Assembly (NCBI GenBank): GCA_039586575.1
Contig: JBDHKD010000005.1
Location: forward strand, 6,062 to 70,061
Reading direction: 5' to 3'
Length of the DNA stretch: 64,000 nucleotides
Origin: Gemmatimonadota bacterium
GTDB taxonomy: Bacteria; Gemmatimonadota; Gemmatimonadetes; Palauibacterales; KS3-K002
In this document: positions 24,456 to 42,750 of the stretch, piece after piece
How positions within the stretch are numbered: position 1 is the stretch's first letter
How the letters are laid out: each line of letters opens with the position of its first letter
Made by a program: the position numbers and the translations under genes
Notes under the pieces: generated by a model
Database searches by the model: none
What the model was told of the DNA's origin: nothing
Seen by the model: the letters and a program-made list of their open reading frames with translations, nothing else

Positions 24456-24504
24456 TCAGACTCCTTAATGAACGGTGACCTCCGAGCCGAATACTGATCT
24501 CTGA

Positions 24505-26586
24505 TCACTGATGACTTGCGGCACGTTGGGCAAAGAACTCGCGAATACCGAGCAGCACACCGCGCGCGTACGCTTCCTGCCAAACCGGGTTCCGCAGGCC
24601 TGCTTCCTGGTCGGGCATCATCATGAAGGCACCCTCGGTGAGCGCGGCGGGCATCCAGGTGGGCCGCACGAGGGCGAGGCTGGCGCGGCCGAAGCCGAGA
24701 TCGCGGAGTCCCATCGTCACCAGCAGGTTGCGCTGTAGGGCGCGGGTCAGGTCGAGTGAGTGGCGCTGGAAGTAATAGGTGCTCGTGCCGTGGCGCTCGA
24801 ACGGGTTCACGCCATCCGGGAGCGCGTTGTTGTGGATGGAGATGAGCAATTCGGCGTCCAGCAGTTCTGCCAGGTACGTGCGGTCGTAGAGCCGCACGAC
24901 GCGGCGGTCGGCGCGGGTCAGGATTACCCGGGCGCCTTCCGCTTCCAATAGGCGCTTGAGCTTGAAGGCGATGGCGAGGTTGGTCTCTCCTTCGTAGAAG
25001 CGTGTCGGTCCGGTGGCGCCCGCCGGCGGGTGGCCGGGATCGACGACGATGGTGCGGCCCGCCAGCGGTTGCCCCGAATCGATGGGCGGCGGTTTGCGGA
25101 TCTCCAAGACGAGGCCGCCCGGCCGGGGACGGACGCGATAGCCCCAAGGCTCGGCCGCCAGATCGATGAGCAGCTGGTAGCGATCGGAAGTGACCTGCTC
25201 CCACCGGGCCGCGCTTAGGAACTCGTCGGCGGGGCCATACTGGAGCCAATCGGTATTCGAGTAGGCGCCGTACAATATGAGCGTCACACGCTTGCCATCG
25301 ACCTCGACCTTGTGGGGCACCGGCTCGCTGACCGACACGTTGACGTGCAGTCGATCGGGCGCGCCACTGAACCGCACGGTGCCGACCCGGGCGCGATCCG
25401 GCTGCCTGACGCCGGGCAACCAGCCGAGCTCGTCCGCGGCGACCCAGGCCTCGGTCTCCTGATCGAGGGCGAGGCGCACGGCTCCGTTGCGCCGGCCGCT
25501 GACGCGCGCCCGTACGCCGTCAGTCCACTGCCAGAAGGTCGTAGCGCCGATCCCGGCACGGCCGATGACGAAGCCGTCGCGGCCCACGCCGGAAGGTTCC
25601 TCGCGCAGCTCGACGACCGGCCCGCTACCTTCGAGGATCCACAGATCGAGCGGTAGCGGAGTGCGCGCCGTGTCGCCCGCGACGATGACCTCGAATCGGG
25701 CACACTCCTCCGCCACGACCCAATCGGGGACATCCAGTTCGCCGGCAGGCGCGGGACCCTCACCTTCAGGCAGCTCGGGGATCGAATCGGCTGCGACGTC
25801 CAGCATGTCCGTCGCGGCGCTATCCAGTGGCTGCGCTGGCGGTGGCGGCGCGCAGTAGTGGATGAGATCCGGGAGCCCCGCCGGCAGCGGCGGCAGCGCC
25901 GGGCTCAGCCTCCCCCGGCCCACCGGCGACCGCGCCACGAGTTCCCCCTCGTAGATCCCCGTCCCGAGCGAGGCGGAGCCCGTACCCATCGGGATCCGAC
26001 CGAAGATCCAGTTCGCCGCCGCGCTCGTCCCCTCGACATTGCCGCTCTCCGCCAGCGGCACCCACTCGCCATCCGGCAGGACGAGCCGCACCCGGGCACC
26101 CGGCGCGGCACGCACGCGCAGCGGGATCGTCTCACCTTCGCGCACCCACCAGGCACCGGCTGGCGATGCGCTTTCCGGATCGACCGCAGCCGAGTCGGAC
26201 GGCAGCGGCGCCAGCGGTCGCGGCAGGAATACCGCGTGAAGCTTACTCACCCGCTGTGAGCCGGCGGCCGCCAGCAACTCGTAGTACGCCACGGTGTCGT
26301 TCGCCGCCGCCGGAACCGGCAGCCAGGCGATGAATGCGCCGTTCGGCTCGACGCGTACGCCGTAGCCGTTGATGGTCAGCCGGGCGTTCCCGTTGCCGAC
26401 CGAGCCGAAGATGAAGTTGGAGTCGCGGGCGGTGATGAAGCTCGAGTCCCGCGGGTAAACGACATCGATGGCTAGCGGGCCATCGTGGAATGGAACCGGT
26501 GGCGGGCCGGTCACCTCGGGTGCGCGGGCAGCGCAGCCGGTGCACGCAAGTGCAAGGCAGGCGAGCCTCGCGACGTCTCGCCCCAT
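24505..26586 (-). CDS. Periplasmic lipoprotein with C-terminal N-acetylmuramoyl-L-alanine amidase (Amidase_3) domain and a large N-terminal domain of unknown function
   Basis: Start set at MGRDVARLACLALACTGC (lipobox; ATG at 26584-26586). C-terminus IVVDPGHPPAGATGP…LISIHNNALPDG…LTEGAFMMMPDQE are Amidase_3 motifs. Confidence 0.85.
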   Translation of the reverse strand: MGRDVARLACLALACTGCAARAPEVTGPPPVPFHDGPLAIDVVYPRDSSFITARDSNFIFGSVGNGNARLTINGYGVRVEPNGAFIAWLPVPAAANDTVAYYELLAAAGSQRVSKLHAVFLPRPLAPLPSDSAAVDPESASPAGAWWVREGETIPLRVRAAPGARVRLVLPDGEWVPLAESGNVEGTSAAANWIFGRIPMGTGSASLGTGIYEGELVARSPVGRGRLSPALPPLPAGLPDLIHYCAPPPPAQPLDSAATDMLDVAADSIPELPEGEGPAPAGELDVPDWVVAEECARFEVIVAGDTARTPLPLDLWILEGSGPVVELREEPSGVGRDGFVIGRAGIGATTFWQWTDGVRARVSGRRNGAVRLALDQETEAWVAADELGWLPGVRQPDRARVGTVRFSGAPDRLHVNVSVSEPVPHKVEVDGKRVTLILYGAYSNTDWLQYGPADEFLSAARWEQVTSDRYQLLIDLAAEPWGYRVRPRPGGLVLEIRKPPPIDSGQPLAGRTIVVDPGHPPAGATGPTRFYEGETNLAIAFKLKRLLEAEGARVILTRADRRVVRLYDRTYLAELLDAELLISIHNNALPDGVNPFERHGTSTYYFQRHSLDLTRALQRNLLVTMGLRDLGFGRASLALVRPTWMPAALTEGAFMMMPDQEAGLRNPVWQEAYARGVLLGIREFFAQRAASHQ

Positions 26587-39220: not shown

Positions 39221-39961
39221 CTAGATCCGTTCCAACAGGAAGTCGGGCGTGAACTGGATCAGGTAGCCAGCCAGCACCGTGAACTTGCCCGTGACCAGCA
39301 GCAGCCCCACCAGGATGAGCAGGATCCCCGCCACCCATTCCACGTAGCGGACGTAGCGGCGGAATCGCTGGAACCAAGAGAGGAAGGCGGTGAGGGCTAC
39401 CGCGCTCAGCACGAAGGGGATCGCCAGGCCCAGCGAATAGACGAAGAGCAGCCCCACACCCTCCGCGACGTTCGCACGGGTCGCCGCCAGCGTCAGTATG
39501 GAACCGAGGATCGGGCCAATGCATGGGACCCAGCCAGCGCCGAAGGCGACGCCGACCGCTACCGTACCTACGTAGCCGACCGGCTTGTTCTGGAACTGGT
39601 AGCGCTTCTCGCGGCTCAGCGCCGGTACCGGTATCACGCCCAGCAGCAGGACACCGAAGAGTATGATGATGACGCCACCCACGCGTGCGATGATGTCTTG
39701 ATACGAACGCAAGAGCTGCCCGATATAGGTCGCCGAGGCGCCCATTAGCAGAAAGATCAACGTGAAGCCGGCGACGAAGAGCAGCGAGTGAACGAGCGTC
39801 ACCCGCTTCACTTCCCCGCCGCCCTGCTCCAGCTCCTCCAGCCCTAGGCCGGTGACGAACGAGACGTAGGAGGGCACCAGCGGGAGAACGCAGGGGCTGA
39901 GGAAAGAGAGCAGCCCGGCGAGCAGTGCTACGACTATGCCGATCGAGGTGCCTTCTTGCAT
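39221..39961 (-). CDS. ccdA: Cytochrome c-type biogenesis protein CcdA (DsbD-family thiol-disulfide transporter)
   Basis: 246 aa; 6 TM helices with conserved Cys in TM1 and TM4 (…FLSPCVLPLVP… …GAGWVPCIGPILG…). Confidence 0.9.
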   Translation of the reverse strand: MQEGTSIGIVVALLAGLLSFLSPCVLPLVPSYVSFVTGLGLEELEQGGGEVKRVTLVHSLLFVAGFTLIFLLMGASATYIGQLLRSYQDIIARVGGVIIILFGVLLLGVIPVPALSREKRYQFQNKPVGYVGTVAVGVAFGAGWVPCIGPILGSILTLAATRANVAEGVGLLFVYSLGLAIPFVLSAVALTAFLSWFQRFRRYVRYVEWVAGILLILVGLLLVTGKFTVLAGYLIQFTPDFLLERI

Positions 39962-39972
39962 GTGTCCAGCCT

Positions 39973-40112
39973 GACAGTGGGTCTGTGGTTCGGGGGAAGT
40001 GGGTCAGTGGGTCAGTGGGTCAGTGGGTCAGTGGGTGTCAGTAACCTAAGTGCCGATCTACTGACTTTCTGACTACTGACTTACTGACCTACTGATCTCC
40101 TGGCCTACTGAT
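39973..40112. repeat. Intergenic double array of 8-bp tandem repeats in inverted orientation: about 5x AGTGGGTC then about 7x (C)TACTGAC, sharing the 6-bp core GTCAGT/ACTGAC
   Basis: Read directly: aagtgggtcagtgggtcagtgggtcagtgggtcagtgggtgtcagt … ctactgactttctgactactgacttactgacctactgatctcctggcctactgatctactgg. It lies between the speB stop and the ccdA start. Confidence 0.85.
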
Positions 40113-41015
40113 CTACTGGCCCACCGACCTACCTCCCCTCCCCTCTTCCCAATACCCGATCATCTTGTAGACCAGCTTGGCCACCAAAAAGTCCGGGGCC
40201 ACGAGCCCCGCTATGGGCGCCAGCTCGACGACGTCGGCGGCGACGACGTTACGCTCGGCGAACACACGTCGGAGCAACGCCAGCGCCTGCACCCAGGTTC
40301 CGCCACCCGGCTCGGGCGTTCCGGTGGAAGGGACGTAGGCGGGGTCGAAGAAGTCGACGTCGAAGCTGATGTAGACATTCTCACCCAACGCCCCCATCGC
40401 GCGATCCATCCAGCCCGGCCCCTCCAGCTCCTCGCCATATATCATGGTGAGGCCGAGATCGTCGATCAGCTTTTTCTCCTCGCTGTCGATGGCGCGAATA
40501 CCGACGCCCACAGGCTTCACCCGATCTACCACCCTGCGCATGACGCAGGCATGGCTCCAGCGGGTGCCGTGGAAGCTATCACGCAGATCGGCGTGGGCAT
40601 CGAACTGCAGGATCGTCAGATCGTCGCCCAAGCGGTCGGCCCAGTACAGCACCGGCACCTGGGTGAGGGTGTGCTCGCCGCCCAGCATGATGACGAATTG
40701 ACCCTGGTCGCAAACCTCCGCGTAGCGCTGGCCGAACTCCGCCAGCGCCGACTCCGGGCCGGCGGCACTCAACTCCAACAGCGGGTAGGTGTGGATGCCG
40801 GCCCGATACGGCTCGCTGTTCAGCTCGTGGTCATAAAGCTCAACGTGCCGAGAGGCGCGGAGGATCGCCTCGGGTCCGCGGCGCGCCCCCTCCATGTAGG
40901 AGGTCGTCGCCTCGTAGGGTACCGGGAGTAGCGCGACCTTGGCGCGGTCGCGGGCGCTGTACTCTTCCCCCAACCCGAGGAACGCGTAAGGATCTTCCCA
41001 AGAGAAATCGGACAT
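40113..41015 (-). CDS. speB: Agmatinase (ureohydrolase family)
   Basis: Start at MSDFSWEDP (ATG at 41013-41015). Mn-binding arginase-fold motifs …GGEHTLT…DAHADL…SFDVDFFDP…. Confidence 0.9.
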   Translation of the reverse strand: MSDFSWEDPYAFLGLGEEYSARDRAKVALLPVPYEATTSYMEGARRGPEAILRASRHVELYDHELNSEPYRAGIHTYPLLELSAAGPESALAEFGQRYAEVCDQGQFVIMLGGEHTLTQVPVLYWADRLGDDLTILQFDAHADLRDSFHGTRWSHACVMRRVVDRVKPVGVGIRAIDSEEKKLIDDLGLTMIYGEELEGPGWMDRAMGALGENVYISFDVDFFDPAYVPSTGTPEPGGGTWVQALALLRRVFAERNVVAADVVELAPIAGLVAPDFLVAKLVYKMIGYWEEGRGGRSVGQ

Positions 41016-41023
41016 CGATCCGG

Positions 41024-41581
41024 CTAGCGCAGCAGCACGGCAGCGGTGACGACGCTCACCCACTTGCCGTCGTCAGGCCCCTCGGCCGTCTGCGTGACGT
41101 TCGTCGTGTGCACGATCTTGCCGGAGACCTGCCACTGGGCACGCTGCGCGTCCCACGCCGTGTCCGAGTCGAACGGCACGCCAAGAATCGTCGCCAGCAT
41201 GCTGGCCGCCAGATCCTCGGCGTAGTCGCCCGCCGTCCTCTCGCTCTGGCCGTACTCGTGGTGTTCCGACAGGTAGCCGAATTGCTGCCGATCTTTGGGG
41301 ATCGCCACGCCGATGCTGGCGGCGATGAGCCGGCTCGGCTCGTTCGTTTCGAGCCTCGACATCACGGCGAAGACGATCTGTCCCGGCGTCAGCAGCTCGA
41401 GCCCCTCCTCTCGCTCGATCAGCTCGCAGTGCGGCGGGAAGATCGACGAGACGCTGACCAGGTTATAGCGAGCGATGCGGGCATCGCGCAGCGCCATCTC
41501 AAAGGCTGAGAGACGCTCGCGATGTACACCGACCCCCTTGGTCAGGAAGATCTTGCTCGGTACAAAAGAGTTACCGGGCAC
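41024..41581 (-). CDS. pdaD: Pyruvoyl-dependent arginine decarboxylase
   Basis: 185 aa; …[41 protein letters not shown]… matches the PdaD family including the SS processing site. The ORF begins with GTG. Confidence 0.88.
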
Positions 41582-42141: not shown

Positions 42142-42750
42142 CTAATCCGATTCTCTGGGCCGCTCGTCCCGAGGAATGACCGTTTCAATAATAGTACTAA
42201 AAGTTACTTCTGGTAGCACGCTGCTGTCAATGAAAATTGCTTTATGTTTGGCGCCCGAGCCGTTCCCGTTGCCGGAGCCGTTTCCGTTGGCGAAACGAGA
42301 GACCGCCTCGTCCCAAGCCTCGGACTTGCCGCCGACCTGGACGACCTCGGGGACTCCGGCATCGGCGAGTCGATTCAACAGGCGGTCCGGTATGTCGGCC
42401 ACCCACCGCTGTGGCGCCGTGCCTTGCTCACGGATCCGCTGAACCCACTCGAACTCGTCGCTCTCCGGGTCGTCGAACTGGGCGTCGACGTGAGACGTCA
42501 GGATCCGCCGACGATCGTCACCGCCGTCGAAGCAAACGAGAACGATGAAATGGCAGGCGTGCTCGCGGTTGGGGAGCGGTGGGAAGACCCACAGCTCATC
42601 GATCGACGAGGCGGGAATGTTGTCGGCAATGGCTCGCAGCCGTCGGTCAAGCGGCAGTGCCCGATCCGGCTTGGTCGGACCGCGCACACCCTTTAGAAGC
42701 ATTCGACGCCTGGGTCCATTTCCACTGCTGTGCTTTCGATGCCAGCTCAC
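42142..42750 (-). CDS. Hypothetical protein with an NGNGSGNGNGSG repeat, co-transcribed upstream of fur (7-bp gap)
   Basis: 202 aa; no recognised domain; acidic C-terminal half. Confidence 0.5.
   Translation of the reverse strand: MSWHRKHSSGNGPRRRMLLKGVRGPTKPDRALPLDRRLRAIADNIPASSIDELWVFPPLPNREHACHFIVLVCFDGGDDRRRILTSHVDAQFDDPESDEFEWVQRIREQGTAPQRWVADIPDRLLNRLADAGVPEVVQVGGKSEAWDEAVSRFANGNGSGNGNGSGAKHKAIFIDSSVLPEVTFSTIIETVIPRDERPRESD

Follow-up and report, generated by a model that had tools for sequence, protein, structure and literature searches.

A strain-variable hairpin repeat element between speB and ccdA in Gemmatimonadota

Several kinds of short repeat occupy the spaces between bacterial genes. 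A REP is one imperfect palindrome of ~35 bp; enterobacteria and pseudomonads carry hundreds of copies, which are linked to RAYT transposases. Folded into stem-loops, REPs shield the mRNA upstream of them from 3' exonucleases and govern expression ratios inside operons (malEFG-type, in which downstream expression is lowered). The STRR heptamers of cyanobacteria are CCCCAGT-type units. Hairpins of 7-bp STRR units lie between hupS and hupL, where a role in transcript stability or translational coupling has been proposed (PMC2670836). The TAACTGA heptamer repeats occur in marine Beggiatoaceae and in some Cyanobacteria and Bacteroidetes (MacGregor 2015, PMC4679880). Almost all of their sets are direct, with 2-6 copies; one set of 170 is indirect, no folding is predicted, and in one orientation the repeats carry stop codons in all frames (MacGregor 2015, PMC4679880). 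Long simple sequence repeats with units of 5-11 nt have been described in bacteria by Mrazek 2007, as summarised in PMC4679880, and PMC4692102 describes tandem repeats of 6-9-nt units in bacterial intergenic regions as little studied. Our search for literature on repeat elements in Gemmatimonadetes found nothing relevant.

Here we describe an element from a 64-kb stretch of DNA, referred to below as the window, whose SpeB homologues identify the organism as a member of Gemmatimonadota. The element is an imperfect palindrome of ~150-165 bp. Read in mRNA sense, it consists of an arm (GTCAGTAG)~10, a 13-nt loop and an arm (CCACTGAC)4-6. Since all three surrounding genes are on the minus strand, the order of transcription is pdaD, speB, array, ccdA, and the ATG of ccdA follows 36 nt past the last perfect unit. 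Coordinates are collected in Table 1, together with the repeat units found at the same junction in related lineages.

Table 1. Features of the speB-ccdA region in the window, and repeat units at orthologous junctions (TRF, Tandem Repeats Finder)
Feature	Position	Strand	Sequence or basis
pdaD, pyruvoyl-dependent arginine decarboxylase, first gene of the operon	41024..41581	-	Pfam PvlArgDC, E 7e-61
speB, agmatinase, upstream gene of the junction	40113..41015	-	Pfam Arginase, E 1e-61; Gemmatimonadota agmatinase homologues
speB stop codon TAG, inside a repeat unit (CAG TAG)	40113..40115	-	ORF list and sequence
speB-proximal arm (5' arm in mRNA sense)	40058..40138	-	~10 degenerate GTCAGTAG-type units; TRF, direct repeat family D1
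Loop/spacer between the arms	40045..40057	-	+ strand CCTAAGTGCCGAT; sequence and minimum-free-energy folds
ccdA-proximal arm (3' arm in mRNA sense)	39975..40044	-	(CCACTGAC)n; TRF, direct repeat family D2
Perfect CCACTGAC units	39998-40036	-	Part of the ccdA-proximal arm
Outer end GGGGGAAGTGG of the ccdA-proximal arm	39992-40002	given as + strand	Sequence
Degenerate units of the ccdA-proximal arm	39975-39996	-	Sequence
ccdA, DsbD-type transmembrane protein, downstream gene	39221..39961	-	Pfam DsbD_TM
L126/L127 junction, upstream/downstream arm			TCGGTAA / CCACCGA
L210-L212 junction, upstream/downstream arm			TCAGTRA / TNACYGA
L213-L218 junction, upstream/downstream arm			CCGGTAG / CCACCGG
L219 junction, upstream/downstream arm			GCGGTRN / CCACYGC
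L220-L222 junction, upstream/downstream arm			TCAGTGA / TTACTGA
L209 junction, unit			CCGGTAA, self-complementary
L128 junction, unit			(AATCAGTA)x3 plus degenerate partners
L208 junction, unit			Degenerate

Tandem Repeats Finder lists 58 rows for the window, and the two with the highest scores are the arrays between speB and ccdA. Both are given on the + strand: (CAGTGGGT)n at 39975-40036 has period 8, 8.0 copies and a score of 82, while (CTACTGAC)n at 40058-40132 has period 8, 9.5 copies and a score of 73. The CAGTGGGT and CTACTGAC arrays are mutually complementary. With at most one mismatch, GTCAGTNNGTCAGT occurs six times in the window, always at the element (the shuffle expectation is 0.26, and six was reached in none of 100 shuffles). 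The cores ACTGA/TCAGT have a density of 10 per 120 nt at the element, against three or fewer in any other 120-nt stretch of the window. Complementarity of the inverted arms is 75-86% (75% for arms of 40 nt). Along the + strand the units run GGGGGAAG, four copies of TGGGTCAG, TGGGTGTCAGTAA and CCTAAGTGCCGAT; then follow CTACTGAC, TTTCTGA, CTACTGAC, TTACTGAC, CTACTGAT, CTCCTGGC, CTACTGAT, CTACTGGC, CCACCGAC and CTACCTCCCC. Read from the outer end inward, the terminal inverted repeats are GGGGGAAGTGGGTCAGTGG (ccdA end) and GGGGAGGTAGGTCGGTGGGCCAGTAG (speB end). The ends of the element are fuzzy, and inspection of the sequence reveals no direct repeat (target-site duplication) at them. The 64-kb window holds this one element and no further copy of it, nor does it contain a REP-like GGGATGAC...CGAGGGATC palindrome.

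Repeat finding, shuffles and core density thus bear out the original prediction of an inverted double array of 8-bp repeats between speB and ccdA. Its lower GC content stands as well (51-58%, compared with 64-70% in the flanks), and so does the exclusion of a CRISPR array, since the units are 8 nt long and contiguous whereas CRISPR repeats measure 24-48 nt and alternate with unique spacers. Some details of the layout need to be revised. The repeats of the first array are real, but it has four perfect AGTGGGTC units plus degenerate ones instead of about five; the second array does consist of tandem units, though these are ~9-10 degenerate CTACTGAC-type units and not about seven. The spacer, put at 18 bp, is actually 17 nt from the last GTCAGT (40037-40042) to the first ACTGAC (40060). 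The element was also said to fit exactly between the two genes; it does lie between them, but the degenerate array continues past 40112 to ~40138, into speB.

The codons at the 3' end of speB and its stop codon are therefore encoded by repeats. The SpeB tail RGGRSVGQ and the TAG stop correspond to the units GGTAGGTC GGTGGGCC AGTAGATC..., the repeat-encoded part being the last eight or so codons, and the tail exceeds most homologues by 4-6 residues. In relatives the speB stop is likewise found within or beside the first units (CAGTAG, CAGTAA, GGTAG). For annotation, the lesson is that the C-terminal tail and stop codon of this gene are repeat-derived.

Copy number can be compared between strains in six contigs (L001-L006, from JGI and NCBI MAGs) that encode an identical CcdA and match the window at 99.8-99.9% identity over 4.9-20.7 kb. 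There are four perfect CCACTGAC units in the window and in L001, five in each of L002-L005 and six in L006. When L002, L004, L005 and L006 are aligned with the window by blastn (4.9-19.6 kb, ~99.9% identical), a single gap is opened in each, and the array length of each differs from that of the window by 8 or 16 bp. The speB-proximal arm has a fixed length in L001-L006 and a single SNP (AGGAGATC versus AGTAGATC), and the six junctions also show a few point differences. With four to six units in near-identical contigs, the perfect array is a VNTR. It is probably the main indel hotspot of the region, and its length changes in one-unit steps, as replication slippage would produce. The array can be used as a strain marker in metagenomes.

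The orthologous junction was examined in relatives of decreasing similarity. A metagenome scan yielded mostly relatives with 45-57% identity, and closer relatives were collected individually. Adjacency of speB and ccdA is conserved across Gemmatimonadota down to ~50% SpeB identity. Where SpeB identity is 76% or less, the junction is 0-50 nt long or the genes overlap (examples are TGATG in L130 and the overlaps in L133, L139-L141 and L144); such overlapping or nearly touching genes point to one operon with translational coupling. At 80-87% SpeB identity, all nine of nine lineages have a junction of 72-167 nt that is filled by repeats with a period of 7-8. Each lineage uses a unit of its own (CAGT, CGGT, CCGGTA, GCGGT), most junctions have hairpin potential, and compensatory arm changes are seen in four lineages. 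L126 and L127 encode identical SpeB proteins, and their junctions differ by 21 nt, which is three units.

In L126, L127, L210, L213, L215 and L219, the junctions can be aligned through arm, loop and arm. The element was therefore inherited rather than inserted repeatedly, and it appears to date back to the ancestor of one Gemmatimonadota clade. It had been suggested that absence from relatives with the same gene order would indicate a recent, possibly neutral, insertion. The element is indeed absent from such relatives at 76% SpeB identity or less, but it is present in all lineages sampled at 80-87%; a short junction in the former and a homologous element in the latter speak for an old gain and not for recent mobility.

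The far side of ccdA shows changes of its own. L213 (3268-3401) and L215 (3268-3360), which have the same SpeB, differ by a 41-nt indel just 3' of the ccdA stop, so the spacer downstream of ccdA is likewise unstable in that lineage. In L182, a distant Gemmatimonadota relative, (GATTGCA)x3.6 comes directly after the ccdA stop (1716-1740).

For the six junctions that can be aligned, RNAalifold predicts 25 pairs, eight of which are changed on both sides. Paired cells amount to 91.3%, compared with 83.4% in shuffles (a value reached in 0 of 500, for six related sequences), and the eight pairs changed on both sides compare with 3.7 expected (again reached in 0 of 500, for the same six related sequences). 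As a control for covariation, slid registers give only 13-48% paired. Since the sequences are only six and related, the covariation is supportive rather than conclusive. It suggests that the arms stay complementary between lineages by means of changes on both sides, while the unit sequence itself is not conserved. Conservation of pairing but not of sequence is evidence against a fixed protein-binding motif.

The upstream arm is also rich in stop codons. Each GTCAGTAG-type unit of the speB-proximal arm includes a TAG or TAA triplet, and the sense strand has 12 stops where 5.6 are expected (12 was reached in none of 1000 shuffles). In the window every frame meets a stop within 40 nt of the speB stop, and in most lineages the upstream arm closes all three within 14-40 nt. 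Only the window lineage, L128, L209 and L219 show a significant excess. Because enrichment follows automatically once the unit contains a stop, it is to be taken as a property of the arm and not as proof of selection. Stops in every frame would end any translation that enters the arm, and would thereby keep changes in length from doing harm at the end of the gene.

A long, bulged hairpin had been predicted from the two arrays, and folding of both strands confirms it. The + strand folds at -96.0 kcal/mol (z -6.8) and the minus strand, which has the mRNA sense, at -74.1 kcal/mol (z -4.0); for L006 the values are -124 kcal/mol for the + strand and -90 kcal/mol for the sense strand. The antisense folds better because, unit by unit, GTCAGTAG faces CCACTGAC with an A.C mismatch on the sense strand that becomes G.U on the antisense. 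Folding favours the antisense in the window lineage, L126, L127, L210, L213 and L219, while L220, L208, L209 and L128 show the opposite asymmetry or none. Because the lineages disagree, we dropped the use of G.U versus A.C asymmetry for assigning a strand. Systematically, CCAC stands in the downstream arm in place of CUAC, the sequence that could pair with TAG/TAA in the other arm. Possible causes of this pattern are GC pressure on an arm without the stop-codon constraint, a role for the + strand, either as RNA or in the form of single-stranded DNA, and common ancestry of the lineages that agree. A search of Rfam at permissive thresholds gives no family above its gathering score; the matches are all to microRNA-precursor models, the best with 35 bits against a threshold of 100, and such matches are what any long hairpin would give.

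Similar repeats occur elsewhere. In a scan for ACTGACNNACTGACNNACTGAC with one genome per species, there are at least 119 loci in many phyla. The listed matches include (ACTG)n tetramers, single ACTGACCG arrays and double inverted arrays, and among these listed matches the double inverted arrays come from Gemmatimonadota, Chloroflexota (Promineofilum and relatives), Acidobacteriota and Verrucomicrobiota. Of the nine Gemmatimonadota matches listed, seven are accompanied by a partner array in inverted orientation no more than 250 nt away, and the matches are located at gene ends; three other Gemmatimonadota MAGs have at least 2-3 loci each. Several Gemmatimonadaceae elements share the outer end AAGTGRGTCAGT, often around a REP-like palindrome. 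Their architecture starts with the gene stop, (G)AAGTGR, [GTCAGTNN]n and other short repeats, and continues with the palindrome tgtcatcccgagcggagcgagggatctc...gagatccctcgctccgctcgggatgaca, [NNACTGAC]n, CCACTTC and the end or start of the next gene. In two Gemmatimonadaceae MAGs, an AGTGR-type motif is found at nine of ten outer ends and has the form AAGTGR in seven of these. The outer end on the ccdA side in the window, GGAAGTGG, is like these AGTGR-type ends; with similar ends and no central palindrome, the window element resembles a minimal member of the family. Among the roles that had been proposed, that of a generic REP/MITE-like repeat fits best, given that other Gemmatimonadota carry GTCAGT/ACTGAC octamer arms with the AAGTGR end.

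Across 395 kb of Gemmatimonadota DNA retrieved for different purposes, arrays with a period of 7-8 are rare. Of 120 ACTGAC matches in viral contigs, 80 are (ACTG)n tetramers, and the ~40 octamer arrays compare with 45 and 68 for two control cores. Since octamer arrays are no commoner than those of control cores, we do not claim that ACTGAC is a special core across phyla; the argument for a family is based on shared ends and architecture within Gemmatimonadota.

A number of individual loci deserve mention in their own right. Composite elements in Gemmatimonadaceae MAGs (L019 4440-4600; L031 1730-1990; L063 3550-3830; L113 2350-2520; L116 2590-2810) have GTCAGT/ACTGAC octamer arrays, sometimes along with AGAGAGCAGAA, around tgtcatcccgagcggagcgagggatctc...gagatccctcgctccgctcgggatgaca, and lie exactly between gene ends. 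In the Acidobacteria MAG RPQK01 (L009, L021, L040, L078, L092, L124), at least six contigs carry (ACTGACAR)n with up to ~21 units; many of these arrays are at the end of a contig and many have an inverted partner, which suggests that this genome is rich in arrays and that the arrays break the assembly. Actinomycetota (L015, L017, L018, L025, L029, L065, L112, L118 and others) have single (ACTGACCG)n arrays at or beside a stop codon. These lack an inverted partner and form a class distinct from the double arrays; their origin may be a tandem duplication around the stop codon. In Candidatus Promineofilum glycogenicum (L102, JADJHJ010000001.1), a near-perfect hairpin (GTCAGTAR)4 - GGTCACCGACC - (CTACTGAC)4 fills the whole spacer of two convergent genes, and its octamer is that of the degenerate arm in the window, in a different phylum. 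Within the window, a weak (ACTGATC)x3.4 at 24493-24516 has a sequence akin to that of the main element. The repeat is situated in the 49-nt gap that separates the stop of one minus-strand gene (26667-24505) from the start (24455) of the following gene on the same strand, and may be a small seed of a similar repeat at another co-directional junction. An 18-bp tandem repeat with 2.1 copies (42253-42289) falls inside the minus-strand ORF 42750-42142, where it encodes GNGSGNGNGSG; the protein of this ORF has no Pfam match.

What the element does can be read in more than one way. A very stable stem-loop that begins at the speB stop would suit a terminator or insulator between speB and ccdA, for example of the hairpin-only type proposed for high-GC bacteria, and similar double arrays do separate convergent genes in Promineofilum (L102) and in Gemmatimonadaceae (L019, L116). 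The strong terminator or insulator of the original prediction is nevertheless made less likely by the lack of a T-run after the stem on either strand (a terminator scan has no match at the element) and by the lack of a promoter-like site for ccdA between the hairpin and the ATG (a promoter scan has no match on either strand), with only ~36 nt from stem to ATG; moreover, the ancestral gene pair would have been overlapping or coupled, as distant speB and ccdA genes overlap or nearly touch. We consider this reading unlikely. There is even less to be said for the reading in which the units are binding sites of a sequence-specific protein that recognises DNA or RNA, be it the dimeric GTCAGT regulator proposed at the outset or a post-transcriptional regulator like the one suggested for the TAACTGA repeats. 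The core varies at the orthologous junction, which keeps its architecture while CAGT is exchanged for CGGT, CCGGTA or GCGGT; it is pairing and not sequence that is conserved; the number of sites differs between strains; and a spacing of 8 bp places successive sites on different faces of the helix. These points weigh more with us than the identical units, their regular spacing just upstream of a start codon and the protein binding proposed for the ACTGA-containing heptamers of Beggiatoaceae (MacGregor 2015, PMC4679880), so that a binding array seems very improbable. We reject a GTCAGT regulator site as such, because the core changes between orthologous junctions.

The strand asymmetry raises the further idea that the + strand gives rise to a structured RNA, which would be antisense to the operon. 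Folding of the + strand is much the better of the two in the window, at -96 against -74 kcal/mol, with G.U in place of A.C, and the direction is the same in L006, L126, L127, L210, L213 and L219; these lineages, however, may form one subclade and hence not be independent, and L220, L208, L209 and L128 do not follow them. As the + strand also has no promoter-like or terminator-like site, and no Rfam family scores above threshold, we give an antisense RNA scarcely any credence. A more serious possibility, though we find it doubtful, is neutral or selfish slippage DNA in a non-essential spacer, with arms matched by within-strand templated correction and no role in expression. Such DNA would be expected to change its copy number between strains and to differ in unit sequence, period (7 or 8) and length in every lineage, as is the case here; it would also account for the partial decay in L208 and L128, the A.C mismatches that persist in the mRNA strand and the existence of relatives without the element. 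It accounts less well for a repeat element at one and the same junction in each of the clade's nine lineages, most of which could form a hairpin there, for compensatory changes in excess of shuffled and slid controls, and for the rarity of such repeats in the rest of the 395 kb of related DNA.

We thus favour, with a probability of about 0.55, a slippage-prone hairpin repeat element that is comparable to STRR and REP and probably forms an intercistronic RNA stem-loop. It is neither a locus-specific regulator nor a canonical terminator. The absence of a promoter match and the ~36 nt from stem to ATG suggest that the element is co-transcribed within a pdaD-speB-ccdA mRNA, in which the stem-loop would take the place of the ancestral translational coupling. 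Its most likely action would be that of a barrier to 3'-to-5' decay or of a partial terminator, in either case setting the speB:ccdA expression ratio; this putative mechanism is modelled on REP/BIME and on cyanobacterial STRR hairpins within operons. Against the favoured reading, the sense strand has an A.C mismatch in nearly every unit, which is unexpected for a selected mRNA hairpin, and complementarity could persist by template switching in the palindrome, without selection. The single element in the 64-kb window and the rarity of period 7-8 arrays in the 395 kb of Gemmatimonadota DNA also count against it, as regards dispersal within this genome.

A much bolder proposal, to which we attach little probability, is that tandem-repeat hairpins with an ACTGA core are a class of gene punctuation found across phyla. 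They would combine stops in all frames with a selected structure, possibly with a shared factor or antisense action, and copy number would tune ccdA against speB. Bearing on this proposal are the TAG/TAA/TGA triplets that the upstream arm keeps in spite of their pairing cost in mRNA, the covariation of the arms and the similar double arrays among the listed matches of four phyla. The junction offers a natural series: an ancestrally coupled junction, a repeat hairpin in nine lineages, compensatory changes and copy-number variation between strains. With this series, the question of whether STRR/REP-like operon hairpins are functional or tolerated can be tested by comparing transcripts of the variants.

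Compared with the described systems, the element has the stem of an intrinsic terminator but not the U-tract, and it has terminal inverted repeats like those of MITEs. With REP/BIME it shares a palindromic structure at a gene end and between cistrons; its arms, however, are octamer arrays, while a REP is a single palindrome without tandem units. VNTRs and contingency loci resemble it in their short-unit arrays, in expansion and contraction by slippage and in polymorphism between strains. Contingency loci differ in that they switch the promoter or reading frame of surface or virulence genes, whereas the arm that varies here is part of the spacer separating two housekeeping genes, with no sign of an on/off logic. 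The likeness to the TAACTGA repeats includes the ACTGA core (here in CTACTGAC; TTACTGA in L210 and L220), the intergenic position near start codons, stops in all frames in one orientation and a patchy phylogenetic distribution. In contrast to those repeats, the arrays here are opposed and form a hairpin, and their unit has another length and one or two changed bases; the exact TAACTGA heptamer in direct repeats is not found. The cyanobacterial STRR are similar in having tandem units of 7-8 nt, a spacer inside an operon, hairpin potential and a function that is proposed rather than proven. They belong to heterocystous cyanobacteria, whereas the present element belongs to Gemmatimonadota, has period 8 and another unit sequence, and overlaps the end of the upstream gene. 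Units of 5-11 nt arranged head to tail, an intergenic position and a strain-variable copy number are all present, as in STRR and long simple sequence repeats, but the heptamer sequence of the cyanobacterial STRR is not. With its units CCACTGAC and GTCAGTAG, the element is thus STRR-like in its working but stands outside the named STRR families. Its class, that of short tandem repeats which lie between genes and form hairpins (STRR-, REP- or LSSR-like), is a known one, and what is new is a representative of that class in Gemmatimonadota.
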